Source: a virus
Lineage: Duplodnaviria; Heunggongvirae; Uroviricota; Caudoviricetes
Virus record (IMG/VR): IMGVR_UViG_2693429508_000013
DNA: 12,511 bases
Strand: one strand, 5' to 3'
Below, piece after piece: positions 1 to 12,511 of the stretch (positions within the stretch are counted from its first letter, which is position 1; every line of letters begins with the position of its first letter). The notes beneath the pieces are model-generated. The model did not search any database. It was not told where the DNA came from and saw only the letters and a program-made list of their open reading frames with translations. The position numbers and the translations under genes are program-made.

Positions 1-182
1 ACACTAAATCAGTAAGTTGGCAGCATCACCCCGCCACAGAACAATTATTGCTTTTGCCGTTGATGACAATAAAGTTTTTATCGCAGGCGTATACCACGGT
101 GGGCAAATCTATGAAACCGATTTTTTATCCAGTGCACCGTAAAACCCCCATCCTTCAGGGCGTGGCGGATATCAAACTTTGG

Positions 183-1265
183 TCATTTTCTCTGGCTGAT
201 CTTTACCGGATAACCATCCCGAAGATCAATTAAGTGCTCCGGTTCAGAAGCAAACCATGCATAAGATCCCCACGCCAATTCTGGTATTGCCTTTTTAAAA
301 GGCAGAGCACTTCTGTCCATAAATGCCGTAAGGAATGCAAGATTTTTCTCGCTGAACCCAGCGTCAATAGCCAAATGAGTGAGAGTAACTTTTCGTTCCC
401 TGTTTATAGGCCCATCTGTCGCAACTACTTCAGTGAAAACTACAAGCATGTCCGAACCCGTTCGGTCCTCTCCCAAATCAATCAAAATAATATCTGGAAG
501 TGCTTTTGAGGCATCAATATTCAGCCCCAATGCTTTTGCCAATACATCATCCTGAGCAACAACTTTATTCCCGGATTCAGACAACCAGAGCACAGTTGGA
601 TTCTTAAGAAAATTAGGAGCAAAAACTTCGATGACGGCCTTAGCTATTGTACTTGACGGGCCCGGAGCTAAAGTTCTCTTCTCTCCATTTGGGAAAGTGA
701 CGACTACGGCATCAGCAGCAATCACTGCCCCTGATTTCAATAAACGCAACCTAGCAAGAGCGGCTTTGTTCAAATGATTTTCTTGCCAGGAACTTATTGC
801 ACTCAGCAGCGAATCTCCTTCAAGCCCGGCATCAAAGAGTGCTGCAAAAGAGCGATTCAAACTGTAACGAGGACGAGAGGATGTGGTGGGTATACCTTTA
901 CGCTCAACAATTGCATTGCAAGGTATTAGGCCATTTTTTATAGTTTCATCACGTATTGGCTCACGCGTATTTTCCGCATACCATGCATCAGCAGGCCTTA
1001 TCTTTTGTTTAGAGAAAGTCATCTTTACCCAGCTTTCTCTGGACGCATCATCAGTAAGAGCAGCCTGCGAATCTCCCATACTTACAACCTGGCTGGGCCT
1101 TATCCATCGCCCCAGCCCCTCAACCGCACCAGCATAAAACATGACAAAAATTGTTTTTGCAGCTATTTCCCGAATTAAATATCCACGATTCTCAGTCCCT
1201 TCAGGGAAAATTAATTGTAATCTTTCCCGGATAACATTCAATGGGGGAACAACAGGCAGATTCAT
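183..1265 (-). CDS. Putative Type II restriction endonuclease, cognate to the upstream methyltransferase
   Basis: 360-aa ORF. Its ATG (1265-1263) overlaps the TGA stop of the methyltransferase gene (ATGA overlap on the minus strand), so M then R sit in one coupled operon. No methyltransferase motifs. The nuclease call rests on gene context and AT-rich cargo-like composition, not on a recognised catalytic motif. Confidence 0.55.
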   Translation of the reverse strand: MNLPVVPPLNVIRERLQLIFPEGTENRGYLIREIAAKTIFVMFYAGAVEGLGRWIRPSQVVSMGDSQAALTDDASRESWVKMTFSKQKIRPADAWYAENTREPIRDETIKNGLIPCNAIVERKGIPTTSSRPRYSLNRSFAALFDAGLEGDSLLSAISSWQENHLNKAALARLRLLKSGAVIAADAVVVTFPNGEKRTLAPGPSSTIAKAVIEVFAPNFLKNPTVLWLSESGNKVVAQDDVLAKALGLNIDASKALPDIILIDLGEDRTGSDMLVVFTEVVATDGPINRERKVTLTHLAIDAGFSEKNLAFLTAFMDRSALPFKKAIPELAWGSYAWFASEPEHLIDLRDGYPVKISQRK

Positions 1266-3094
1266 GCAATCATCACTCCATAGAAACCAGCGATAGTTCT
1301 CTCAATAATCCGTCTGTGGACGCCAGCATCAATTAACGATTGAATCTCCATCACCTGCTCCAGAGAAGGCAACGGGATTGAATTCAATTCATAGGCCGAA
1401 ACAGCAACACTTCCGCTTATACACCTGAACGCCCGATCGACAACATGCGAATTAAGTAGCATATCAATAACATCAGGGCGAACCGCAGAGAACAATCCGT
1501 TTGAATATACAATATTAATATGGTTTTCAACTACTACGCCACCAGTTTCATCTATAAATCCCTGAGGTAAAATTGCCGCTAAAATCCTTCTGTCCTGTTC
1601 CTTCGATGTTGTCCGCTGAACAAGCACACATTCAGATTTTGTCACAAGGAAACCCTGTTGTGGGGTTATATCGATATAGGGAACATGATTTTTTCTGTCT
1701 GCACTAAAACGAAAACCAGCTGAAGTTATTGATTCCGCCCAGACTAATGGGTAGCTATTTTTTCCTTTCGTCGTACGCAACTGCGACTTAAATCGATTCC
1801 AGACTAACTGACCTGTAGAGACTGAGTATCCCAGATCAGCTAAACGCGTAGACATCTGTTTTAATACATTAAGAAAACAGGCATCATCTTTAACGCGTGG
1901 CAAAAGCCACGTTGCTCCACCTTTTTCTATATCAACATTACCTATTTTCTCAATTTTTGCTTTGTTCAACCCCTTAGGGACAAGTGAGGATACCTGGGCC
2001 CGAACTTTATGTTCTCCCGCCTTGAATGCTGTCAACATTGTTTCCTGGAGAACATCGTCAAAGACCCCATCCCTGTCAGTGACGAAATCAAGGGCATACG
2101 GAGTAGTTTTTTCGGTCAAAAGGGTTCGCAGCGCGGTGAAATACTGCCCACCAAGAAAAGAAGTTGGCGTAAGAAATGCAATAACTCCTGTTTTCTCTTT
2201 AACCATGCGAACAGCTAAGTCGGTGAACAATCCATATAGATTTGCATGACCAAATAACGAACGAGAATATTTTTCTCTCGTTTTAATATCGAGAGTGACA
2301 CGTCCGTAAGGCGGATTCCCTACCACAAGATCATAACCAGAAAATTTATCTTGCTGAAGCGCATCAGCAACAATAATTGTATCTTCAGGCAATCTACGTT
2401 TTACCTTTACACATAGTGGCATTAGTACAGATTCGAGCAATACCAAACTCATCCAAGCCGCAAATGGATCGATTTCTATCCCCTTTAAACGACGACTGAT
2501 TCTCCTCAACATCCATTCAGGGGAAGACCCCTTGTCTTTTTTTAACATTCGAATGGCTACTGGTGCCAAAAATGCACCGCCACCACACGCAGGATCAATA
2601 ACCGATGCATGAGAAAAATCAACACCAGACTTTTCAGCCAGGTCCAAGAGACGCGCTACCAAAGGTGGGGGGGTATAGTAAGCCCCCAATTCCGAACGGT
2701 AAGCGGATGGCAGCATTACCGTATAAATTGACCCAATCAGATATCCAGCGTCCTCCGCCGGAAATTGAGCAATAAGCTCACCTGTTCGTTCAGCGAGCTC
2801 GCGTGCATCACATGGAATGTCTTCTATGTAAACAGTGTGCGGTACTGCCCTCATTTTAATGCTGCTTTTTTGCTTTTTTGCAAGGGTATCCCAATATGCA
2901 GCTACGATGCTGAAGCAGTATGAGCGGGCATGCATCAACCTTGACTGCCCGGTTTTGTAATTGCCCGCATAACCTTTGGCCATGGCTTTACAAGTTTGAT
3001 ATCTTTCCAGATTAGAAAACTCATTATCTGTAAAAAAATCAAAATGTTGCACATTCATAATGTAAAATCCTAATGTATCAAACATGCGGGCCAT
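1262..3094 (-). CDS. N6-adenine DNA methyltransferase, gamma class (Eco57I-like amino-MTase fold)
   Basis: 610-aa ORF with motif X (YYTPPPLV), motif I SAM-binding (VIDPACGGGAFL) and motif IV catalytic (DLVVGNPPYG) in the gamma-class order X-I-IV. The long C-terminal half is consistent with a target-recognition domain. ATG at 3094-3092. Confidence 0.88.
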   Translation of the reverse strand: MARMFDTLGFYIMNVQHFDFFTDNEFSNLERYQTCKAMAKGYAGNYKTGQSRLMHARSYCFSIVAAYWDTLAKKQKSSIKMRAVPHTVYIEDIPCDARELAERTGELIAQFPAEDAGYLIGSIYTVMLPSAYRSELGAYYTPPPLVARLLDLAEKSGVDFSHASVIDPACGGGAFLAPVAIRMLKKDKGSSPEWMLRRISRRLKGIEIDPFAAWMSLVLLESVLMPLCVKVKRRLPEDTIIVADALQQDKFSGYDLVVGNPPYGRVTLDIKTREKYSRSLFGHANLYGLFTDLAVRMVKEKTGVIAFLTPTSFLGGQYFTALRTLLTEKTTPYALDFVTDRDGVFDDVLQETMLTAFKAGEHKVRAQVSSLVPKGLNKAKIEKIGNVDIEKGGATWLLPRVKDDACFLNVLKQMSTRLADLGYSVSTGQLVWNRFKSQLRTTKGKNSYPLVWAESITSAGFRFSADRKNHVPYIDITPQQGFLVTKSECVLVQRTTSKEQDRRILAAILPQGFIDETGGVVVENHINIVYSNGLFSAVRPDVIDMLLNSHVVDRAFRCISGSVAVSAYELNSIPLPSLEQVMEIQSLIDAGVHRRIIERTIAGFYGVMIA

Positions 3095-3153
3095 AACATC
3101 TCATGGTGGCGCATAGCAAACTGGCCCGAAGAATATCACGCACCAAGTCGATC

Positions 3154-3169
3154 TCATAACCCGTTATGA
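3154..3169. promoter_or_regulatory. Perfect inverted repeat TCATAAC-CC-GTTATGA in the R-M upstream region
   Basis: 7-bp arms with a 2-bp spacer, about 60-75 bp upstream of the methyltransferase start codon in the 3095-3308 intergenic region. Candidate operator; no binding protein identified. Confidence 0.3.
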
Positions 3170-3308
3170 CAATAAATCTTTGTAGCTGAACTCACTTGGT
3201 GATTTGTCAATCATTCCTGGCCTCCAGTTCGTCCTGAATCTCTTTATCGAGTTCACCGTATTTGTTAGTCCTCATCACTCACGACTTGACTTCCAGAAAT
3301 AACCTTGA

Positions 3309-3665
3309 TTATTCGGGGCTATATTTTGTCACCCTGCGTATCCGCGCTTTCGCATTACGCTCAATCTGGATTAGCTTTTCTATATTTTTTCGCCTTTCCC
3401 GCTCCTCCTGGCGCAAGAGCCTTACATCATCTGCCAGTCTGGTTTCTCTTTTCGCCACAGAGAGCATCCAGTCAAATGGCTCCACAACTGCACCGCAAAT
3501 TTTACAGCGGACCTGACGCTCTTTTTCGTCAACCCGGACAGAAGCGTGATGGCAATATGGTCTTTCCGATGGCTCATAAAGAAAATTAACCTGATTACGA
3601 GGGTTATCCTCTTTTACCGGAAATAAAACAATATTGCTTAACTCATCTTCTGGTTTTATTTCCAT
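3309..3665 (-). CDS. Hypothetical phage protein with a possible zinc-binding motif
   Basis: ATG at 3665-3663 preceded by a strong SD (AAGGAGAGGAG); the longer ORF in the track begins at a GTG at 3722. 118 aa, MEIKPEDEL..., containing C-H-H ... C-x2-C (PYCHH ... CKICG). Same strand as and immediately downstream of the replication genes. Confidence 0.6.
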   Translation of the reverse strand: MEIKPEDELSNIVLFPVKEDNPRNQVNFLYEPSERPYCHHASVRVDEKERQVRCKICGAVVEPFDWMLSVAKRETRLADDVRLLRQEERERRKNIEKLIQIERNAKARIRRVTKYSPE

Positions 3666-3722
3666 GCTCCTCTCCTTTGATGCGAATGCCAGCGGTAATT
3701 GAAGCCTGATAGCTAATTTCAC

Positions 3723-4145
3723 TCACAGTACCGCCTCCTGAAAATCACCCTGATAGAAAGCCGGTACACGCTGCATAACTTCACTCTTCCGGCACTCGCG
3801 ACAGATTATGTTCTGATGTCTGTCGTAGCGGCGTATTTCTCCGTCTGGTAATGACCAGATAAGGTCAGGATCAACCACAGATGGTTTCTTCAGATTTGCC
3901 CTTGAGAGTTTTTTGCGGGCGTTTTGCCAGTCCTTACGAGCCTGTTCAGACGGGAATAACCCGTAGCCAGAGTTGTATACATCCCCACTGGCAACCAGCT
4001 CTCTGGCGAGAACGCTTATTAAATATCTTGTCGCCCCGGTTTTAGCTTCCAGTTGTCGTAACGTCTCGCGCCCACTCTGGCGTACGAGTTCAACAACCTG
4101 CCCCTTAATTTTTTCCCGCTCTTCCTGTGTAAATACTTTTGCCAT
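3723..4145 (-). CDS. Hypothetical phage protein
   Basis: ATG at 4145-4143 (MAKVFTQEE...); the track ORF starts at a TTG at 4160. 140 aa, basic, with a C-terminal CxxC (ICRECRK). Start lies 15 nt downstream of the upstream gene stop (coupled). Confidence 0.6.
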   Translation of the reverse strand: MAKVFTQEEREKIKGQVVELVRQSGRETLRQLEAKTGATRYLISVLARELVASGDVYNSGYGLFPSEQARKDWQNARKKLSRANLKKPSVVDPDLIWSLPDGEIRRYDRHQNIICRECRKSEVMQRVPAFYQGDFQEAVL

Positions 4146-4160
4146 AAGCGCCCCCGGCAA

Positions 4161-4886
4161 TCACTTTTCCGACACAATACGACCGGAGGAATCGACAATC
4201 TGTCGAACAATATCCCGGTGCTTGTTCAGCTCCCGCAACGCGGCGCAGACACGCTCCCACTTCTGGACATGACTTTTCGCCCGACGCAGTTCGCGGTTTG
4301 CCATATGCAGCGATGGTAAAACCAGGTCATCCGCTTGCGTTTCGGTGAACGATGGCAACGACTGCACAATGTCCGCCACAGTTTCTGTTTTAATTTCTTC
4401 CTGTGTTGCAGCTTCCTGTACCGGTAACGCAACACCTGCTGGCTGAGGAAAGACTTTACCATCCGTTTCCGCTATGGATGCGGCTTTCGGCTCTGCCGGT
4501 AAATCAGCGCCCGGTATGCAGTACCGAAATTTACCGCCCTGATTCACGCGAATCAGACGCCCTTTGCTGATTGCCATGGCCAGCGATGAATTCGCCCGGC
4601 GGGAGGTAATCCCGAACATCAGTGCCAGCTCATCCGCCGTTTGTGGGCCATGTTGTTCAATCGCCTCAGTCAGCATTTGCGCTGTCACTTTCGGTACCGG
4701 TGACACTGGTTCACTTTCACCAGCCTGAATCAGCCACCACATCGAACCCTTGTTATCCGCTTCACCACGGCGCTTCAGTTTCCACAGTTCGTTGACCGCA
4801 TCTTCACGGCTGATTCCAAGGCGGGACGCCACCACATGTGAAGAGGCTCTTTTCAGTGCTTTCAGTGCGTCAAATACAGTTTCCAT
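4161..4886 (-). CDS. Hypothetical phage protein with two winged-helix-like segments
   Basis: ATG at 4886-4884 with SD GGAGGA 6 nt upstream (minus strand); the track ORF starts at a TTG at 4904. 241 aa. N-terminal [26 protein letters not shown] and a second [31 protein letters not shown] segment resemble HTH/winged-helix units. Starts 22 nt after the DnaC-like stop. Confidence 0.65.
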
Positions 4887-4907
4887 TAAAACATCCTCCA
4901 ACAAAAA

Positions 4908-5654
4908 TTACTTCACAACTCCCGGAAAGCTGACATTTGAACGCCAGCTATCCCAGTTAAACGTCACCCACCGACAACCGTTCATGGTCATGCGGTCCAT
5001 AATCCTCTCACCAAGAAGCGTGCTCATTGCGGCATGATTCAGGTTTGTTAACATCCCGACACTGCACAGTGATGCTGTCCGGCGATCAATTATCTGGTGC
5101 AATACCACCTGCTCGTTTTTCGTCTCCCGCTGAATGCCTATTTCATCCAGGACCAGCAAATCAACCCCGCAAAGCTCCTGTAAAAATTTTTCACCGGATT
5201 TGCCGTTGTCGTAGCTGTCATGCAACACGCTCATGACATCAGACACGGTGACGATAATCACGCTGCGCCCCTTCGCCATCAGCCAGTTACCCATCGCCGC
5301 TGCAAGGTGATTTTTCCCGGTGCCGGTTTTACCGCTGAACACAAAATTCGTGCACCCGGTCATCAGTTCGTCAGCTATGGATTTGGCCTGGCTCAGCGCG
5401 TATTTTTGCCCGTCGTTCTGCACCTGATAATTCGCAAACGAGCATTTGCTGTGCAGAGGCTGGATGCCCGAACGATTCAGGATTTTTTCCACCCGCAACT
5501 GGCGATTCTGGCGGTTAATCTCCTCGCTGCGTTTTCGTCCTTCAGCAAGTTGCCATTCCCGCCACTCCTCCACCGTCCGGTACGGTGGAACCGCCCCCTG
5601 TGGTGCAAGTCTGTGAATACGTTCAAGAACCCCGGCTGCCGCAATGTTTTTCAT
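4908..5654 (-). CDS. DnaC-like replicative helicase loader (AAA+ ATPase)
   Basis: 248 aa with Walker A (FSGKTGTGKNHLA) and Walker B (DLLVLDEIG). ATG 5654-5652 lies 6 nt after the TGA of the upstream O-like gene (coupling). Confidence 0.9.
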   Translation of the reverse strand: MKNIAAAGVLERIHRLAPQGAVPPYRTVEEWREWQLAEGRKRSEEINRQNRQLRVEKILNRSGIQPLHSKCSFANYQVQNDGQKYALSQAKSIADELMTGCTNFVFSGKTGTGKNHLAAAMGNWLMAKGRSVIIVTVSDVMSVLHDSYDNGKSGEKFLQELCGVDLLVLDEIGIQRETKNEQVVLHQIIDRRTASLCSVGMLTNLNHAAMSTLLGERIMDRMTMNGCRWVTFNWDSWRSNVSFPGVVK

Positions 5655-5660
5655 GCCACA

Positions 5661-6725
5661 TCACCCCCTGAATCCCGGCGGAATTTCGGTATCCGGTTCA
5701 GAAATATGATTCACACAACGCTGGTTGTTCGTGCCGCTTACCGGGAGCAACCAGGGGTTTTCAAAATTCCGGTCCGGCCCAAAAAACGTCGTCGCTCGCT
5801 GAACAAATTCCGTTCCCGCTTTCCCGGTCGCCGCCAGGTATCTCGCGTAACGCCTCACACCATCCAGCATGGTCTCTGGTGGCACCCCCTCGCGCAATCT
5901 GGCCTTCCAGGCACTGAATGCGGATTTCTTCGGGTTTGCCCCGGCACGCAACGGGTATTCCCGCCAGACCTGTTCGAACACATCCGGATAATCCACTCGT
6001 CCCACAGGCTGCCCGGTGTTTTCCGGGGCTACCCGATCGGCTTCCCGCTGAATGGCGGAATCGGCTTCAGGCTGCTGCAGTTGGAGTGATTGCTCCGGCC
6101 TTGCGGTCATCACCTGCTGCACAGCGCCCGAATCGGCTTTCAGCGCATACGCTGAATCGGCTTCCGGTGTCGAGCCTGCTGGCTGACCAGGATTGACGGT
6201 CTGAACATCCCCTGCCTGGTTCGTGGCGTTTTTTACGCCATGGACCATAGTGTTTTGATCTTCTTTATCTGTATCTTTATCTGTATCTGTCGTGACTCGT
6301 CGTGACATGTGCGTGACATTTCGTGACGCGCCGTGACAATCGCCATTTTGTTCCCGCTTTCTTTCCCTCTCTCGCTGCGCCCTCTTGCGCTCTGCAGGAG
6401 ATTTTGCGGTTTGCGAAATATTGCCGTTGTCCTCTTTAAGCACCTGGCGTTTTTCCCATCCAGTGATTAAATCACCATCAAGTACCCGCCCCTGCATCGT
6501 CTGCAAAATTGAATCAATTACCTCTTCTGTCACGTCGAGCGCACTTGCCAAATCTTCTGTCGTGACATCAATGTGACCTCGCGTGACATTTCGTGACGCG
6601 CTCACCAGGAGGTGGATATACACTGCCATCACTGTTGCAATTGGCTGCCCTGACACCCTGGCAATTGTTCGCCACTTAGGGTCATTTGGCATGTCATGCC
6701 ATAATCTGAGCCAGGCGTTAGCCAT
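5661..6725 (-). CDS. Phage replisome organizer / replication initiator (lambda O-like)
   Basis: ATG at 6725-6723 (MANAWLRLWHDMPNDPKW...), SD-like AAGAGG just upstream; the track ORF starts at a GTG at 6731. The N-terminal domain resembles phage replisome-organizer N-terminal domains. The central region is low-complexity, T/D/K-rich, and is encoded by the iteron DNA. Directly upstream of the DnaC-like loader. Confidence 0.8.
   Translation of the reverse strand: MANAWLRLWHDMPNDPKWRTIARVSGQPIATVMAVYIHLLVSASRNVTRGHIDVTTEDLASALDVTEEVIDSILQTMQGRVLDGDLITGWEKRQVLKEDNGNISQTAKSPAERKRAQRERERKREQNGDCHGASRNVTHMSRRVTTDTDKDTDKEDQNTMVHGVKNATNQAGDVQTVNPGQPAGSTPEADSAYALKADSGAVQQVMTARPEQSLQLQQPEADSAIQREADRVAPENTGQPVGRVDYPDVFEQVWREYPLRAGANPKKSAFSAWKARLREGVPPETMLDGVRRYARYLAATGKAGTEFVQRATTFFGPDRNFENPWLLPVSGTNNQRCVNHISEPDTEIPPGFRG
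6263..6337. repeat. Iteron cluster 1 plus adjacent AT-rich direct repeat (candidate origin) inside the O-like gene
   Basis: 12-bp direct repeat CTTTATCTGTAT x2 (6263-6286), followed by five CGTGAC hexamers at 6291, 6301, 6312, 6322, 6332 (10-11 bp spacing, one helical turn). Includes the 20-mer GCGTGACATTTCGTGACGCG at 6311-6330. Confidence 0.65.
6529..6600. repeat. Iteron cluster 2 inside the O-like gene
   Basis: CGTGAC at 6561, 6582, 6592, TGTGAC at 6572, and an inverted copy GTCACG at 6529-6534. An exact second copy of GCGTGACATTTCGTGACGCG at 6581-6600, 270 bp from the first. Confidence 0.6.
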
Positions 6726-6796
6726 ACTCACCTCTTCTGATACCGAATCTTTTTACTCACGAGTTGCCGGGAGCGATTCGATATGGCTATTGTCAG

Positions 6797-7222
6797 TCAA
6801 TGTACTGCCACAGCATTTCCTGCCGGGCCACCACGGTTCATCTGATTGAAACCGGCGATTGCCACTGCGACAAAATCATCAGCGTCTCTCACCAGTCGTT
6901 CATGCGTCTCCACCAGTTCCCGAAAATAAGCTGAACTGTGGCTGCGCATTCGAGCCACCAGCGGAGGTGGCATTGCCCTTTCGATCGCAGGTAACAACGC
7001 CTGAATTTTTTCAACAGCGTCAGGGGTGTCTTTATCCAGCCAACGGAAAATCTTTTGGGTGTTGAGATAAAGCGTGTTGTGCTTGCTGTCGTTATGCAGA
7101 ACCGGAAACGTCATTCCCAGTTCGAAATAAACCCTGGTTATTTCAGCTGCCGGAACTTTTTCACCGTCCGGATGCGCCCAGGCTTTCATCGCCATGCGGA
7201 TGTGTTCATGCTTGATTTTCAT
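6797..7222 (-). CDS. ydaT: YdaT-like protein (CII-like regulator family of Rac-type prophages)
   Basis: 141 aa, MKIKHEHIRMAMKAWAHPDGEKVPAAEI...; recognised from memory as YdaT-like. Its ATG overlaps the TGA of the upstream Cro-like gene (ATGA at 7219-7222). Confidence 0.75.
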   Translation of the reverse strand: MKIKHEHIRMAMKAWAHPDGEKVPAAEITRVYFELGMTFPVLHNDSKHNTLYLNTQKIFRWLDKDTPDAVEKIQALLPAIERAMPPPLVARMRSHSSAYFRELVETHERLVRDADDFVAVAIAGFNQMNRGGPAGNAVAVH

Positions 7223-7482
7223 GAATCAACCCCCGCCGATGGTTGTGTGTTAGCCTGAAACTCAGCAGGCAAGCCGTCAGTTGGGTTGGGGTAGGTTTTA
7301 CTGTCAATCTCATGTGGGGTCACCACCCATCCCGTTGCTTCACACCAACGTAATATTTTTTCTCCTGTAAGTTTTGCACGCCCCGTTATAACGTGGCTGA
7401 CCATCCCTTGGGATGCGCCAACAATCTCAGCAAATGAACTCTGGGTTATATGAAAATGATGCAAATATTCTCCAAGATTCAT
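7219..7482 (-). CDS. ydaS: YdaS-like Cro-type HTH protein
   Basis: ATG at 7482-7480 (MNLGEYLHHFHITQSSFAEIVGASQGMVSHVITGRAKLTGEKILRW...); the track ORF starts at a TTG at 7509. 87 aa, single HTH. Divergent from the repressor gene across an operator-bearing intergenic region. Confidence 0.75.
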   Translation of the reverse strand: MNLGEYLHHFHITQSSFAEIVGASQGMVSHVITGRAKLTGEKILRWCEATGWVVTPHEIDSKTYPNPTDGLPAEFQANTQPSAGVDS

Positions 7483-7517
7483 AATCCGCCCTATGTGATG
7501 TGTTACCAATGCATAAT

Positions 7518-7559
7518 TAATAGCACTGTTATTTTTAAAAGTAAATAGTGATGCTATTT
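7518..7559. promoter_or_regulatory. OR-like operator pair in the divergent promoter region
   Basis: Two 17-bp palindromic sites separated by 8 bp: TAATAG-CACTG-TTATTT (7518-7534) and AAATAG-TGATG-CTATTT (7543-7559, perfect 6-5-6 palindrome). They lie between the divergent Cro-like and repressor starts. Confidence 0.55.
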
Positions 7560-7593
7560 CAAAGTGATTAGCAATCTTATTAGAATTGGATGT

Positions 7594-8094
7594 ATGAAAA
7601 GAAAATCATTGTCAGACACCGACCTCAACGCCGCCAGAAGACTGAAAGAAATCTGGATGGCAAAGAAATCTCAGTTGGGATTGACTCAGGAACGTGCGGC
7701 GGAAATTATGGGGTTTTCAACACAAGGGGCGGTAAGTCACTACCTAAATGGTCAAACCCCACTAAACCTTGAGGCTGTTCTAAAGTTTGCTGGCTTACTG
7801 AAAGTTCCCCCTGAGTCAATCAGGCCAGACATGGTAGATTTGCTGCAAATTGCAAGGATGTATTGTCGAGAACCACAGCAAGATAACATAGTCGCATTAC
7901 CAGCAGACACAGAACAAACAGAGGATGAACTACCGTTTGCCGTAGAGCCGATGGAACGAGATTTAATCCATACGTTCAGAGCTTTTCCGAAAGAAGATCA
8001 AGAACACATGCTTCAGGAGATGAAAGATAAAAAAGAATCAATGGATCGTACGGTTGCGCGGTGGTTAGCTGCACAAAAAGGCCGTCGCGCCTAA
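7594..8094 (+). CDS. Phage repressor-like HTH regulator without a peptidase S24 domain (PaaR-like)
   Basis: ATG at 7594 (MKRKSLSDTDLNAARRLKEIWMAKKSQLGLTQERAAEIMGFSTQGAVSHYLNG...); the track ORF starts at a GTG at 7564. cI/434-type N-terminal HTH, acidic C-terminus, no Ala-Gly/Ser-Lys LexA-like features. First gene of a three-gene unit ending in parE. Confidence 0.75.
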   Translation: MKRKSLSDTDLNAARRLKEIWMAKKSQLGLTQERAAEIMGFSTQGAVSHYLNGQTPLNLEAVLKFAGLLKVPPESIRPDMVDLLQIARMYCREPQQDNIVALPADTEQTEDELPFAVEPMERDLIHTFRAFPKEDQEHMLQEMKDKKESMDRTVARWLAAQKGRRA

Positions 8095-8113
8095 ATCAGA
8101 GGAGATATGTAAA

Positions 8114-8308
8114 ATGAGTACAGTCCTTTCCCCAATGGTTTCAGAATTTGAGACAGTTGAGCAAGAAAATAGTTACAACGAATGGCTGCGGGCCAAAGTA
8201 GCAGCAAGCCTCGCGGATCCCCGCCCGGCGATTCCGCATGATGAGGTAATGGCGGAAATGGAACAAATTATTGCCCAAATTGCTGCTGCAACTCACAGAG
8301 GTGAATAA
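8114..8308 (+). CDS. paaA: PaaA2-like antitoxin, partner of ParE
   Basis: 64 aa, MSTVLSPMVSEFETVEQENSYNEWLRAKVAASLADPRPAIPHDEV...; SD GAGGAG 9 nt upstream. Stop overlaps the parE start (TAATG). Confidence 0.7.
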   Translation: MSTVLSPMVSEFETVEQENSYNEWLRAKVAASLADPRPAIPHDEVMAEMEQIIAQIAAATHRGE

Positions 8309-8598
8309 TGTTACCCGTTTTATGGCTACCATCTGCTCGTGATGATTTGCGCCAGATCGTAGCCTACATAGCTAAAGAAAATCCCGCGGCAGCACGCAGA
8401 ATGAAAATTCGAATTGAAACATCCGTTTTGCCGCTCACAGAGCATCCTTACCTGTATCCTCCAAGCGAGCGAGTTCTTGGTCTTCGTGAAATTGTAACTC
8501 ATCCTAACTACATCATCCTTTACCGAGTAACAGCATCAAGCATAGAAGTAGTAAATATTGTGCATTCTCGAAGACAGTATCCAGGCAAAAACAGTTAA
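8308..8598 (+). CDS. parE: ParE/RelE-family toxin
   Basis: 96 aa, MLPVLWLPSARDDLRQIVAYIAKENPAAARRMKIRIETSV... HPNYIILYRV...; typical ParE length and conserved segments. Translationally coupled to the antitoxin. Confidence 0.85.
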   Translation: MLPVLWLPSARDDLRQIVAYIAKENPAAARRMKIRIETSVLPLTEHPYLYPPSERVLGLREIVTHPNYIILYRVTASSIEVVNIVHSRRQYPGKNS

Positions 8599-8614
8599 TT
8601 ATTCCCGCCGACAG

Positions 8615-8637
8615 AACCACCTTAGGGTGGTTTTTTC
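8615..8637 (+). terminator. Rho-independent terminator after parE
   Basis: Stem AACCACC / GGTGGTT with loop TTAG (8615-8632), followed by a T-run (to 8636). Confidence 0.6.
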
Positions 8638-8652
8638 TTGCCCCAACAAAAA

Positions 8653-8694
8653 CAATAGCGATGCTATTTACATCAAAAAATAATGATGCTATTG
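8653..8694. promoter_or_regulatory. OL-like operator pair upstream of the rightward dicB-type operon
   Basis: Two 17-bp sites separated by 8 bp: CAATAG-CGATG-CTATTT (8653-8669) and AAATAA-TGATG-CTATTG (8678-8694). Same half-site consensus and spacing as the 7518-7559 pair. Embedded in a larger inverted symmetry AACAATAGC ... GCTATTGTT (8651-8696). Confidence 0.55.
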
Positions 8695-8875
8695 TTTCAG
8701 GCGTCAACCCACCCCGCCCCACAGAATGCAGGGCAATACTTCGAGTTACCAGACAGTGGTCAGGGGTTAAGTAGCCAGCCCGAGGCGTAAGAACATGACG
8801 GCAGGGTTCAATCTTTAACTATGCAGCAGGTTTTTTGTTCCGCCACCCCGGCGTTAAGGGGAAATGAGGTCAGCA

Positions 8876-9027
8876 TGGATACTATCGATCTTGGCAACAA
8901 CGAATCTCTGGTGTGCGGCGTGTTCCCTAACCAGGATGGAACGTTTACCGCCATGACGTATACCAAAAGCAAAACGTTTAAAACCGAATCTGGCGCGCGT
9001 TGCTGGTTAGCCAGAAACACTGACTGA
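8876..9027 (+). CDS. Small hypothetical protein (YdfA-like by position and size)
   Basis: ATG at 8876 with SD GAGG 6 nt upstream. 50 aa, MDTIDLGNNESLVCGVFPNQDGTFTAMTYTKSKTFK.... First gene after the OL-like operators. A longer start at 8821 lacks an SD. Confidence 0.5.
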
Positions 9028-9038
9028 TGAGGCTGACG

Positions 9039-9404
9039 ATGGAATTTAAAGATTTACCGTCTGATGTACAGAAAACAGCAGCTCATACATTGCATTCTGT
9101 GCTGCGAGAAATCGGGAAAGATATTGCAAGCGAGCCAGCAAAAGATCTGGCCCGGAAAATCAAGACCGCTTTCGTTGAGCTTTATAATGTTGGCACTGAC
9201 TCTGAAACTGTCGAGACCAAGACCGTAAGTTCACCAATATTCTCACTTGAGCCAAGCGTATTATCAGGTGAAATATGCACCGAGATTTCCAGCGAACTGC
9301 TTCCGGTAATACGAGAAGCAATTCGCCGTCGCGGTTTGGATGGAAGTTATGATCATGACGTTCTGCAAGTTCTCAGGACAATGGTGACTTCACTGGGGAT
9401 TTGA
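9039..9404 (+). CDS. Hypothetical phage protein
   Basis: ATG at 9039 (MEFKDLPSDVQKTAAHTLHSVLREIGKD...) with SD GAGG upstream. 121 aa. Confidence 0.55.
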   Translation: MEFKDLPSDVQKTAAHTLHSVLREIGKDIASEPAKDLARKIKTAFVELYNVGTDSETVETKTVSSPIFSLEPSVLSGEICTEISSELLPVIREAIRRRGLDGSYDHDVLQVLRTMVTSLGI

Positions 9405-9573
9405 TCCCTGCGTCCTCTAAGCTTTTGATATAGCGGTCCTCCAAGAAGCGGTAAATTTTGTCGAAATCATCTTTTCCCTCTGGTTTATTCAGAGGATTAC
9501 AGGACCCGTAAGTAGCGGCATACATTTCAACCGTTTTATCAAAAATATAAGAGACAAATTCTTCTTTAGTCAT
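9373..9573 (-). CDS. Small hypothetical protein
   Basis: ATG at 9573-9571 with a good SD (AAGGAAA) upstream on the minus strand. 66 aa, MTKEEFVSYIFDKTVEMYAATYGSCNPLNKPEGKDDFDKIYRFLEDRYIK.... Convergent with the 9039..9404 gene and overlapping it by 32 bp. Confidence 0.45.
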   Translation of the reverse strand: MTKEEFVSYIFDKTVEMYAATYGSCNPLNKPEGKDDFDKIYRFLEDRYIKSLEDAGIKSPVKSPLS

Positions 9574-9758
9574 ATAGATTTCCTTCTTGGTTATTCGGGA
9601 TAAGAAGGATACCACCTCGCCTGACGTGGTTAAAAGCAGGCACACAACGCGAAATGACGCGGCGGTAAGTATGGCGGAGTTATTCCTTCCCCGTTGAGGA
9701 CACCGGGTTGTCAGGTTGACCATACGCTTAAGTGACAACCACGCCACAACACTCCATG

Positions 9759-9814
9759 TTGATTGGTACCTTTGGCGGCATCAGTTTCATTGCTGGCTGA
9801 TGTCCGCCCTTTTT
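9759..9814 (+). ncRNA. dicF: DicF-like sRNA with terminator hairpin
   Basis: TTGATTGGTACCTTTGGCGGCATCAGTTTCATTGCTGGCTGATGTCCGCCCTTTTT. The core TTTGGCGG.ATCAGTTT and the GC-stem plus T-run 3' end match my recollection of E. coli DicF; the 5' dozen bases differ. Hairpin GGCGGCATCAG (9774-9784) / CTGATGTCCGCC (9797-9808), then TTTTT (9810-9814). Sits upstream of dicB as in Qin. Confidence 0.5.
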
Positions 9815-10301
9815 AAAGTGAATTTTGTGATGCGGTGAATGCGGCTCAGCGCACGCGGCACAGTTAAAAAGCGATTAGTTCCCCCGTATCGGGTGGTTAT
9901 GGGTTTCCCTGTATCCGGCGTTAATTGTTAACTGGTTAACGTCACCTGGAGGCACCAGGCACCGCATCAACAAAGTTCACTTCGGTGATGAAAGGAAAGA
10001 GAAAATGTTGAATGTAGCTATTGAAAACCAGAACGGGTGGAATTATAGTGCACCTGCACCTTATAAAACGGGTGCCGGGCGTGGAAACCCGAACGTTACT
10101 CGAGCGCATAGCCGCGCTGAAGCGGTTTTTTTATGCGTAATGCACAGCTCCATTCAAATTATGGTGGGATGTGCAGGGCAGTCGCAAGACTGGCCGGGTT
10201 CTCGAGTGACCGGTATTTCCACCCCTGTACGTCTCACCACCCTTATGGTCGTGGAAAACCTCGGTGGTGAGTTAATTAACTTATCACTCGAGGATGCCAT
10301 C

Positions 10302-10859
10302 ATGGCTACTATCCCTGCCCTTTCTCACCCTGACGTAACCATCGAAAATGGTCGCGCTGTCACTACGTCTATTGCGATCGCAGAGTTCTTTGGCAAGCGT
10401 CACGACAATGTGTTACGTGCCATCGCAAATACTGAATGCTCACCTGAATTTAACGCCCTCAATTTTGAGGACGTCACCTACACTGACGCCAAAGGCGAAA
10501 AACGCCCGATGTACCAAATCACCAAAAACGGCTTCGTTTTCCTGGTGATGGGATTCACTGGCAAAAAAGCCGCTGCATTTAAAGAAGCCTACATTGCTGA
10601 GTTCGATCGCATGGAGGCCGAACTGCGCCAGAATAACACCCCACCCACTGACAAAATAATTCCAGGCGATGGCCGCACCCTGGTTGTTCACTTCGACGAA
10701 CGCGGCAACATCAGATTCACCGAAACCGTTCCTGATGGCGCACGGGTCTGTACCATGGAGACTTTCCGGTTTTATCTGGAAGAACAGGGATGGACTCTTG
10801 TTAACCGGGGCGCAATTAAAAATATGACTGTAGAGCAATTACTCAAAATTCATTGTTGA
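10302..10859 (+). CDS. rha: Rha-family phage regulatory protein
   Basis: ATG at 10302 with SD AGGA 7 nt upstream. 185 aa, MATIPALSHPDVTIENGRAVTTSIAIAEFFGKRHDNVLRAIAN ... YQITKNGFVFLVMGFTGKKAAAFKEAYIAEFDRME, i.e. a Rha N-terminal domain signature. An in-frame upstream ATG at 10005 would add 99 non-Rha-like residues. Confidence 0.8.
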   Translation: MATIPALSHPDVTIENGRAVTTSIAIAEFFGKRHDNVLRAIANTECSPEFNALNFEDVTYTDAKGEKRPMYQITKNGFVFLVMGFTGKKAAAFKEAYIAEFDRMEAELRQNNTPPTDKIIPGDGRTLVVHFDERGNIRFTETVPDGARVCTMETFRFYLEEQGWTLVNRGAIKNMTVEQLLKIHC

Positions 10860-10869
10860 GGACGCGATA

Positions 10870-11058
10870 ATGGAAACGTTATTACCAAACGTTAATACGA
10901 CTGAAGGTTGTTTTGAAATTGGTGTCACTATCAGTAACCCTGTATTTACTGAAGATGCCATTAACAAGAGAAAACACGAACGGGAGTCATTAAATAAAAT
11001 ATGCATTGTTTCAATGCTGGCTCGTTTGCGTCTGATGCAAAAAGGATGCTGGCGATGA
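10870..11058 (+). CDS. dicB: DicB-like cell-division inhibitor (copy 1)
   Basis: 62 aa, METLLPNVNTTEGCFEIGVTISNPVFTEDAINKRKHERESLNKICIVSMLARLRLMQKGCWR; SD GAGGA 7 nt upstream. Recognised from memory as DicB (62 aa in K-12 Qin). Confidence 0.8.
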   Translation: METLLPNVNTTEGCFEIGVTISNPVFTEDAINKRKHERESLNKICIVSMLARLRLMQKGCWR

Positions 11059-11246
11059 ATACAGCATTTGCACTCGTTCTGACCGTTATTCTTAATACGG
11101 GCGAACCAGCTGAACTGGTTACCGGAGTATACAACTCCATGAAAGAATGCGTGGCTGCTGCAGCTGAACAGAAAATTCCCGGTAACTGTTATCCGGTTGA
11201 TAAAATCATTCACCAGGATAATAAAGAAGTCCCGGCAGGTCTTTAA
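11055..11246 (+). CDS. ydfD: YdfD-like small membrane/lysis protein (copy 1)
   Basis: ATG at 11055 overlaps the dicB stop (ATGA), SD AAAGGA 8 nt upstream. 63 aa, MNTAFALVLTVILNTGEPAELVTGVY..., hydrophobic N-terminus. Same size and position as YdfD of Qin. Confidence 0.7.
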   Translation: MNTAFALVLTVILNTGEPAELVTGVYNSMKECVAAAAEQKIPGNCYPVDKIIHQDNKEVPAGL

Positions 11247-11334
11247 AGCAGCCACGTAATAAATATCCGGTTTCATTTTTATATGCCAGCAATGGCAGGG
11301 ATTTGTTCACCCTTAAATCTGTAATGAGGTTAAA

Positions 11335-11604
11335 TACATTGCTGAGTTCGACCGCATGGAGGCCGAACTGCGCCAGAATAACACCCCACCTGCTGACAAG
11401 ATGATTCCGGGTGATGGTCGCACTCTGGTTGTTCACTTCGACAAATTCGGCAATGTCGAATTCACCGAAACCGTTCCTGATGGCGCACTGGTCTGTACCC
11501 TGGAGACTTTCCGGTTTTATCTGGAAAAACAGGGATGGACTCTTGTTAACCGGGGCGCAATTAAAAATATGACTGTGGAACAATTACTCAAAATTCATTG
11601 TTGA
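11335..11604 (+). pseudogene. Truncated rha copy (3' portion only) created by the tandem duplication
   Basis: Homology to rha begins mid-gene at the duplication junction. The rha frame opens just after a TAA at 11314-11316; the first ATG (11356) has no SD. Encodes only the C-terminal 82 residues (MEAELRQNNTPPADKMIPGDGRTLVVHFD...). Confidence 0.65.
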
Positions 11605-11614
11605 GGACGCAATA

Positions 11615-11803
11615 ATGGAGACGTTATTACCAAACGTTAATACGTCTGAAGGTTGTTTTGAAATTGGTGTCACTATCAGTAACCCTGTATTTACTGAAGA
11701 TGCCATTAACAAGAGAAAACACGAACGGGAGCTATTAAATAAAATATGCATTGTTTCAATGCTGGCTCGTTTACGTCTGATGCCAAAAGGATGTGCACAA
11801 TGA
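11615..11803 (+). CDS. dicB: DicB-like cell-division inhibitor (copy 2)
   Basis: 62 aa, METLLPNVNTSEGCFEIGVTISNPVFTEDAINKRKHERELLNKICIVSMLARLRLMPKGCAQ. Differs from copy 1 at 5 of 62 residues, mostly at the C-terminus. Confidence 0.8.
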   Translation: METLLPNVNTSEGCFEIGVTISNPVFTEDAINKRKHERELLNKICIVSMLARLRLMPKGCAQ

Positions 11804-11991
11804 ATACAGTATTTGCACTCGTTCTGACGGTTTTTCTTGTTTCCGGTGAACCGGTTGACATGGTTACTGGCGTATACAGCTCAATGAAAGAATGTATGAC
11901 TGCCGCAGCGAAACAGAAAATTCCCGGTGACTGTTATCCGGTCGATAAAGTTATTCACCATGATAATAACGAAATCCCGGCAGGTCTTTAA
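11800..11991 (+). CDS. ydfD: YdfD-like small membrane/lysis protein (copy 2)
   Basis: ATG at 11800 overlaps the dicB copy-2 stop (ATGA). 63 aa, MNTVFALVLTVFLVSGEPVDMVTGVY.... Differs from copy 1 at 16 of 63 residues. Confidence 0.7.
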   Translation: MNTVFALVLTVFLVSGEPVDMVTGVYSSMKECMTAAAKQKIPGDCYPVDKVIHHDNNEIPAGL

Positions 11992-12075
11992 AACAGTTCC
12001 GTAATAAATATCCGGTTTCATTCTTATATGCCAGCAATGGCAGGGGTTCGCTCAACCTTAATTAAGGAGAAAAAC

Positions 12076-12351
12076 ATGATTACCAGTTATGAAGCCACTG
12101 TTGTAACTACTGATGACATTGTTCACGAGGTTAATCTGGAAGGAAAGCGTATTGGCTACGTGATTAAGACAGAAAATAAAGAAACCCCATTCACTGTGGT
12201 TGATATCGACGGTCCATCAGGCAACGTTAAAACACTTAACGATGGTGTAAAAAAAATGTGTCTGGTGCACATAGGAAAGAATCTGCCCGCAGAAAAAAAA
12301 GCCGAATTTCTGGCAACTCTGATTGCAATGAAATTAAAAGGTGAAATCTGA
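12076..12351 (+). CDS. Hypothetical phage protein
   Basis: ATG at 12076 with strong SD AAGGAG 6 nt upstream. 91 aa, MITSYEATVVTTDDIVHEVNLEGKRIGYVIKTENKETPFTVVDIDGPSGNVK.... The longer ORF in the track starts inside the duplication and is not supported. Confidence 0.6.
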   Translation: MITSYEATVVTTDDIVHEVNLEGKRIGYVIKTENKETPFTVVDIDGPSGNVKTLNDGVKKMCLVHIGKNLPAEKKAEFLATLIAMKLKGEI

Positions 12352-12381
12352 AAAAAAGAAAGCCTGCACACTGTGCAGGCC
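12351..12381 (-). terminator. Hairpin with flanking A/T run, canonical as a minus-strand intrinsic terminator
   Basis: Stem GCCTGCACA / TGTGCAGGC (12362-12380), preceded on the plus strand by AAAAAAAGAAA. Read on the minus strand this is a hairpin followed by a U-run. In plus orientation there is no downstream T-run. Confidence 0.45.
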
Positions 12382-12511
12382 TGAGTGAAGAACCTGGGAC
12401 ATTTATTCATCACTCGCAGTAATTTTAATCTGAGTTGAGGTTAAAAAACAATGAGCACCGATAAACAAGTTTACCCACTGTATGAGGTAGCCTGAGTTTA
12501 ACGGACACTCC

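Follow-up and report, generated by a model that had tools for sequence, protein, structure and literature searches.

Two diverged dicB-ydfD units on one draft prophage contig are most likely separate loci brought together by scaffolding

One of the closest described counterparts of the region studied here is the dicB-ydfD module (dicBF operon) of the Qin cryptic prophage of E. coli K-12. The literature presents DicB as both an inhibitor of cell division and a modulator of phage receptors, and characterises YdfD as a lysis protein which inhibits IspG (PMC6832061, PMC10448788, PMC8835842). The window, i.e. the whole stretch of DNA analysed, is an entire draft contig of 12,511 bp (CXDS01000125.1 in assembly GCA_001259615.1; locus L005 in the comparisons below). 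It presents two units of the Qin type in succession, each of which encodes a 62-aa DicB followed by an overlapping 63-aa YdfD/DUF1482 protein. By homology with K-12 Qin, the DicB copies would inhibit cell division and the YdfD copies would cause lysis via inhibition of IspG. The surroundings of the module differ between the two systems: in the window, isrK and C4-like RNAs and then a Rha-family gene come before it, whereas the K-12 Qin module is presumably located behind ydfABC-dicF. A DicF RNA was not found in the window by an Rfam search.

A second point of comparison is the type of join that assembly software can leave in a draft genome. In the Sanger pipeline, Velvet contigs are joined by SSPACE, which inserts Ns at read-pair links, and GapFiller is then applied; both programs are greedy and able to make false joins (PMC5320598). 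GapFiller works inward from each gap edge in single-nucleotide steps, halts where the overhang is ambiguous, and requires the extensions to overlap by 10 nt or more before it closes the gap (PMC3446322). A literature search on the single-n convention of SSPACE returned nothing citable. The arrangement in the window resembles N joins of the SSPACE/GapFiller type in several ways. In the source record the join consists of a single N, and the sequences flanking it match two different loci of a closed relative. The pieces joined are paralogous prophage modules, and small IS-bounded contigs adjoin. Ns at implausible joins also occur in other records of the series, as detailed below.

The initial annotation described a direct repeat of the segment from the middle of rha through dicB and ydfD, and a repeat search of the window together with a MAFFT alignment confirms it. 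The search returned a 300-nt seed at 10590-10889 and 11335-11634 (92% identity, spacing 745), which the alignment extends to approximately 727 nt in each unit. Ungapped identity between the units is 90.2% over these 727 nt, far above chance expectation. It is highest in dicB (94%), followed by the rha C-terminus (92%) and ydfD (85%); exact runs of 86, 49, 39 and 38 nt are common to both units. Tandem Repeats Finder did not report the repeat because its maximum period is 500. Coordinates of the features are collected in Table 1.

Table 1. Features of the 12,511-bp window around and downstream of the dicB-ydfD repeat.
Feature	Position	Strand	Content or basis
rha ORF, left ('B-prime') prophage locus	10005-10859	+	284 aa as gene callers draw it; ORF list
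Repeat unit 1, left locus	10590-11316	+	89 rha C-terminal codons, dicB 10870-11058, ydfD 11055-11246
ydfD-exonuclease intergenic tail, native to left locus, ending ...AATCTGTAATGAGGTTAA	11317-11333	+	Outside the repeat; flank comparison, 10 loci
Unclosed scaffold gap	11334	.	N in CXDS01000125.1, A in window
Repeat unit 2, second ('A-type') prophage locus	11335-12061	+	89 rha C-terminal codons, dicB 11615-11803, ydfD 11800-11991
82-aa ORF, Rha C-terminus in unit 2	11356-11604	+	ORF list
91-aa ORF (orf91), A-type locus, between ydfD and exonuclease gene start	12076-12351	+	ORF list
A-type exonuclease gene, first 10 codons, interrupted by IS600 insertion	12452-12482	+	Sequence
IS600 terminal repeat, 29 nt, TGAGGTAGCCTGAGTTTAACGGACACTCC, at contig end	12483-12511	+	Continuation in L031 and L022

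The two DicB copies match PF05358 over their full length with 125 and 136 bits (gathering cutoff 27; E-values of about 1e-37 to 1e-40), and the two YdfD copies match PF07358 (DUF1482), also over their full length, with 75.5 and 80.6 bits (cutoff 25). The copies differ at 5 of 62 residues in DicB and 16 of 63 in YdfD, exactly as first counted, and at 9 of 89 residues in the C-terminal piece of Rha. The dN/dS between the copies, a comparison which the initial annotation had proposed, is 0.29-0.38, as expected of diverged functional alleles. In the 284-aa rha ORF of the left locus, the Phage_pRha domain (PF09669, E=4.8e-32) is at residues 120-204; the true start of this gene is likely to be the ATG at 10303. 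Unit 2 begins at Rha residue 196, and nearly the whole of the Phage_pRha domain is consequently absent there. The 91-aa ORF downstream of unit 2 has no Pfam match. The region at 12424-12445, which contains the ribosome binding site of the A-type exonuclease gene, resembles 11313-11334.

The physical contiguity of the two units depends on one base. When the window was compared with CXDS01000125.1 (12,507 nt compared, window 5-12511), a single mismatch was found, immediately ahead of unit 2: at position 11334 the window has A where the deposited record has N. The contig contains no other N, and the deposited junction reads ...GAGGTTAA N TACATTGCTGAG. Since the deposited record has an N at precisely this point, the junction 11334/11335 is an unclosed scaffold gap, and the uninterrupted tandem of the initial annotation is not upheld. 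Other 'contigs' of the same WGS series also contain scaffold gaps, as indicated by Ns at implausible joins in L009 and by a run of 198 Ns in L012. The first single N in L009 (position 2832) separates the start of an exonuclease gene from an IstB-like gene in inverted orientation; the second (position 7972) lies beside a 162-nt redundant copy which recurs approximately 2 kb further on. From the accession series and the pattern of Ns, the pipeline was probably SSPACE plus GapFiller, as used at Sanger.

The sequence to the left of the N belongs to a locus which is found elsewhere with a single dicB-ydfD unit. Window positions 1-11333 are 99.7% identical to a locus of the closed chromosome CP180280.1 (L004), and two sister contigs (L006 and L007) match window 5-11333 at 99.94% identity and extend approximately 1.1 kb further, into the exonuclease gene. 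Past GAGGTTAA, these three relatives carry the exonuclease gene and not rha. The same continuation is seen more widely: all eight listed contexts of the exact Rha protein which extend past ydfD read CTGTAATGAGGTTAA followed immediately by AACAAAATGAGTAAAG, and in the flank comparison nine loci run on from the left flank into the exonuclease gene. The latter sequence is the start of a 3'-5' exonuclease/YdfE-family gene, as annotated in L001-L003; the exonuclease gene of the left locus starts AACAAAATGAGTAAAGTCTTTATTTGCG... The exact 284-aa Rha protein occurs on 25 contigs and is single-copy in all nine other contexts listed.

Unit 1 itself shares 99.8% identity with the loci L004 and L006-L013, 98.4% with the allele of E. 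coli RMDEC465, which is single-copy, and approximately 90.7% with the alleles of VL7S7 and CFSAN029787. Upstream of unit 1, the remaining half of rha shares 99.8% identity with VL7S7. The combination of a VL7S7-like upstream rha half with an RMDEC465-like unit 1 first suggested that one homologous and one illegitimate crossover had introduced a foreign 745-bp allele into a VL7S7-like prophage. This model was rejected: the hybrid Rha is an ordinary single-copy allele, present on the 25 contigs mentioned above. Mosaic alleles are ordinary in lambdoid early regions. In VL7S7 the N-terminal half of rha shares 99.8% identity with that of the window and in CFSAN029787 72%, while the rha C-terminal, dicB and ydfD segments of both match unit 2 at 99%. 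As a case of allelic early-region modules in the lambdoid prophages of E. coli and Shigella, the window is no different from this ordinary situation.

The sequence to the right of the N belongs to a second locus. Window positions 11335-12511 are 100.000% identical over 1,177 nt to positions 5260-6436 of L031, and the same is true for L033. In the closed chromosomes represented by L031, L032 and L033, a full-length rha (281 aa) is followed by dicB, ydfD, the 91-aa ORF and then IS600; in L031 the N-terminal half of this rha is located at 4684-5259. The L031 sequence beyond the window end is 99.3-100% identical to an 'IS3-like element IS600 family transposase' of plasmid records, and L022, a locus from another draft, continues likewise. 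Unit 2 is 100% identical to L031 and L033, 99.0% to CFSAN029787, RMDEC364 and VL46, 98.9% to VL7S7, and 90% to RMDEC465. The assembly collection lists the 91-aa gene in 2,525 blocks, most of them on contigs shorter than 5 kb; this suggests that the right piece is a small repeat-bounded island which is difficult to place in drafts.

Both loci are present in the closed chromosome CP180280.1. The left locus (L004) is at 2,236,062-2,256,916 in forward orientation; the second locus (L031) is at 2,019,662-2,031,937 in reverse orientation and carries an intact rha of 281 aa. The two alleles are thus approximately 220 kb apart and oppositely oriented, and neither rha is truncated. Two of the earlier interpretations are not supported. 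The 'decapitated' rha is a contig edge and not a product of recombination; rha is full-length at both CP180280.1 loci. A tandem joining of the alleles by recombination is likewise unsupported, as the join is an N and the alleles lie far apart in the closed relative. The proposal that the units are two pre-existing alleles and not a fresh duplication is well supported, since each unit is 98.4-100% identical to separate loci, whereas identity between the units is no more than 90%.

The window is best explained as a product of short-read scaffolding: read pairs joined two separate contigs, and the gap between them was never closed (probability roughly 0.86). The left piece (1-11333) would derive from one lambdoid (Qin/Rac-like) prophage which carries an R-M system, replication genes, YdaS/T, a cI-like repressor, ParE/PaaA2, isrK/C4 RNAs, rha, dicB and ydfD. 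The right piece (11335-12511), which ends in IS600, would be the 3' part of an rha-dicB-ydfD-orf91 module from another prophage remnant of the same genome. Owing to the 90% identity and the shared exact runs, read pairs of one locus may have mapped onto the other; such cross-mapping could have led the scaffolder to append the small right contig to the left one, its estimate of the gap being zero or negative. During gap filling, both edges would then have been extended base by base, with one N left for want of overlap. The right edge appears to stop at 11335 at the point where the A-type and a third rha allele, that of L022, first differ: the A-type reads GAAGCC/TAC and the third allele GAGGCA/TAC (slash at the edge), and the next 254 nt are otherwise 99.6% identical. 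Extension upstream of 11335 would be ambiguous because the preceding base differs between these two alleles.

If the two units were instead a genuine direct tandem, formed by illegitimate recombination between co-resident prophages, the N would stand for one uncalled base. The window as given does read through, and its units are distinct alleles, as this model requires. However, reads across a real junction would let the gap filler call the base and close the gap, and there is no microhomology at the join. In addition, the junction is missing from every collection searched. It was not found as a contiguous sequence in 5,426 complete E. coli genomes with either a 211-nt junction probe or a 2.5-kb probe. 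Both halves of the 211-nt probe were covered at five places, each time as two separate pieces; at the four of these which are rha-dicB-ydfD loci, the pieces span 742-747 bp, which is the single-copy order. The pattern CTGTAATGAGGTTAA-N{0,30}-TACATTGCTGAGTTCGA had no match in GTDB species representatives, JGI metagenome contigs or IMG/VR, and the exact junction 27-mer had none in GTDB species representatives. Together with the single-copy state of the exact hybrid Rha in all its other listed contexts, these results make a direct tandem very improbable.

Insertion sequences offer another route to true adjacency: the two units could be neighbours parted by unassembled sequence, most likely an IS such as IS600, hidden behind the single N. 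An IS-mediated rearrangement would in this case have brought the A-type remnant beside the left prophage, with the IS truncating the A-type rha. Genomes of this type are IS-rich and often rearranged, and the scaffolder linked the contigs, which implies that some read pairs connect them; several such pairs are required for a link, and they could reflect true proximity. The right piece ends in IS600; moreover, L022 contains the 1,177-bp piece at 99.9% identity after an IS600 end, across a single N. In closed Shigella-type genomes (L014-L020, L023), a similar rha C-terminal ORF is cut by a different IS end, 15 nt upstream. The left piece also stops at GAGGTTAA, short of the exonuclease gene which is reached in the sister assemblies.

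On the other hand, neither gap edge carries any IS-end nucleotides, in contrast to the 29 nt of IS600 retained at the 3' end of the contig. CP180280.1 holds both pieces (99.7-100% identity) at its two distant, oppositely oriented loci with rha intact, and the sister drafts run on into the exonuclease gene. An IS hidden at the gap is consequently quite unlikely; even if true, it would be an IS-mediated juxtaposition and not a tandem duplication. That the A-type rha'-dicB-ydfD-orf91 remnant really moved next to the left ydfD in this isolate, whether directly or with an IS, is also unlikely. Such a move would give one locus a pair of diverged DicB/YdfD cassettes together with an 82-aa fragment of the Rha C-terminus standing on its own. 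Its significance would be modest: one more mosaic rearrangement among the lambdoid prophage early regions of an IS-rich E. coli/Shigella-type genome.

The sequence similarity between the units is real; the tandem duplication is most likely a scaffold artefact. Each unit is most likely an ordinary allelic dicB-ydfD cassette from its own lambdoid prophage region, both regions belonging to a single E. coli/Shigella-type genome. The initial annotation had proposed that the cell would carry two such cassettes; it does carry two or more, but their presence within one locus is not supported. It had also cautioned that the repeat might be an assembly artefact. An artefact is indeed most likely, but of a different kind: collapse of a repeat had been expected, whereas here two true copies from different loci were probably joined falsely or without the join being resolved. 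Several dicB-ydfD cassettes per genome are already the norm in E. coli. In the set of 5,426 complete E. coli genomes, 4,675 contain matches to the region; among these, the median number of matching places is two and the maximum ten. The case also calls for caution with sequence records: an N silently shown as a base can turn a scaffold gap into an apparent structural variant, complete with a 'decapitated' gene and a 'recombination junction'.

Three further explanations of the junction and the contig edges were considered. A microhomology junction was suggested by TACA at 11335-11338, where BLAST hits overlap by 4 nt. The relatives read GAGGTTAA followed by AACAAAATG; the overlap is a gapped over-extension, which also leans on the artificial A at 11334. 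An IS600 lying exactly at the start of unit 2 was suggested by L022, but L022 also has an N at this point and the adjacency is unsupported. In the IS-truncated copies of the closed Shigella-type genomes, the IS end is a different one and lies 15 nt further upstream; the idea is retained only within the IS-mediated alternative described above. Finally, the edges are unlikely to be k-mer boundaries of a de Bruijn assembly, as the distances to allele-specific SNPs imply an implausible k of approximately 9-21. Base-by-base gap extension fits the contig edges better than k-mer boundaries do.

Base 11334 is an A in the window and an N in the source record. The base is invented and marks a scaffold gap, and any downstream analysis using the window inherits it. 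Ns in other drafts of related isolates likewise fall at joins that leave sequence locally redundant or genes beside implausible neighbours. At one such join, a 162-nt duplicate lies on both sides of an IS1/IS3-family pair; another, in the related locus L022, makes a 254-nt near-duplicate of rha. Many contigs of these draft series are probably affected by the same class of scaffold artefact.

Genuinely truncated rha C-terminal ORFs are found in Shigella-type genomes, in seven related loci (L014-L018, L020 and L023; at about 9925-10370 of each locus). The truncated ORF lies next to an ipaH gene and encodes the same 82-aa product as unit 2, the second rha-dicB-ydfD copy of the window. At the break is a different IS3-family element, the end of which (...GGTAGTGTCCGCTATTGCCAGTACACCTCA) lies 15 nt 5' of the point where unit 2 of the window starts; in six of the seven loci a further IS cuts dicB to 36 aa. 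There are thus genuine cases of decapitated rha, but in these an IS marks the breakpoint.

Features of the window and N positions in related draft loci
Feature	Position	Strand	Remarks
Restriction endonuclease (360 aa, type II, BsuBI/PstI-family) and N6-methyltransferase (610 aa)	window 183-3094	-	
PaaA2-type antitoxin (64 aa) and ParE-family toxin (96 aa)	window 8114-8598	+	
'Rha' ORF (284 aa)	window 10005-10859	+	
isrK RNA	window 10056-10132	+	Rfam, 61 bits
C4 antisense RNA	window 10157-10244	+	Rfam, 77 bits
RBS region, left-locus equivalent	window 11313-11334		
91-aa ORF	window 12076-12351	+	Pfam search, no match; strong Shine-Dalgarno AAGGAG
Hairpin	window 12360-12383		
RBS region, A-type locus	window 12424-12445		
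Exonuclease gene start, A-type locus, and IS600 end	window 12452-12511 region		
N positions, related drafts	L009 2832 and 7972; L022 8284; L012 112-309		single Ns or N runs

Gene callers and PGAP both start the 'Rha' ORF at the ATG at 10005, so that it contains both Rfam matches (10056-10244), which lie immediately 5' of the part coding for the Rha domain. Residues 14-109 of the ORF match the Ash protein family (PF10554) in Pfam; these residues are the translation of the isrK/C4 stretch. An alternative rha start, the ATG at 10303, is preceded by a GAGGA Shine-Dalgarno sequence. Either the 284-aa ORF begins too far upstream, in which case the PF10554 match may be to RNA genes read as protein, or the stretch has a dual use.

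The assembly collection lists the exact 91-aa protein in 2,525 blocks. Its ORF is located between ydaE/kilR or ydfD and a recE-type exonuclease gene in Rac-like prophages; in the window, it is followed by the hairpin. In the A-type locus (the prophage module holding unit 2), IS600 interrupts the exonuclease gene after codon 10 and also forms the end of the contig. Between the A-type and left (284-aa rha ORF) loci, the RBS regions share 82% identity.

The endonuclease and methyltransferase genes occupy one edge of the prophage early region and look like a prophage-borne restriction-modification system. The PaaA2/ParE pair is flanked by a cI-like repressor gene and ydfA. In contrast to the window, the relatives VL7S7 and RMDEC465 hold HigB or RelBE modules at this position, which makes it look like a slot where toxin-antitoxin modules can be exchanged.
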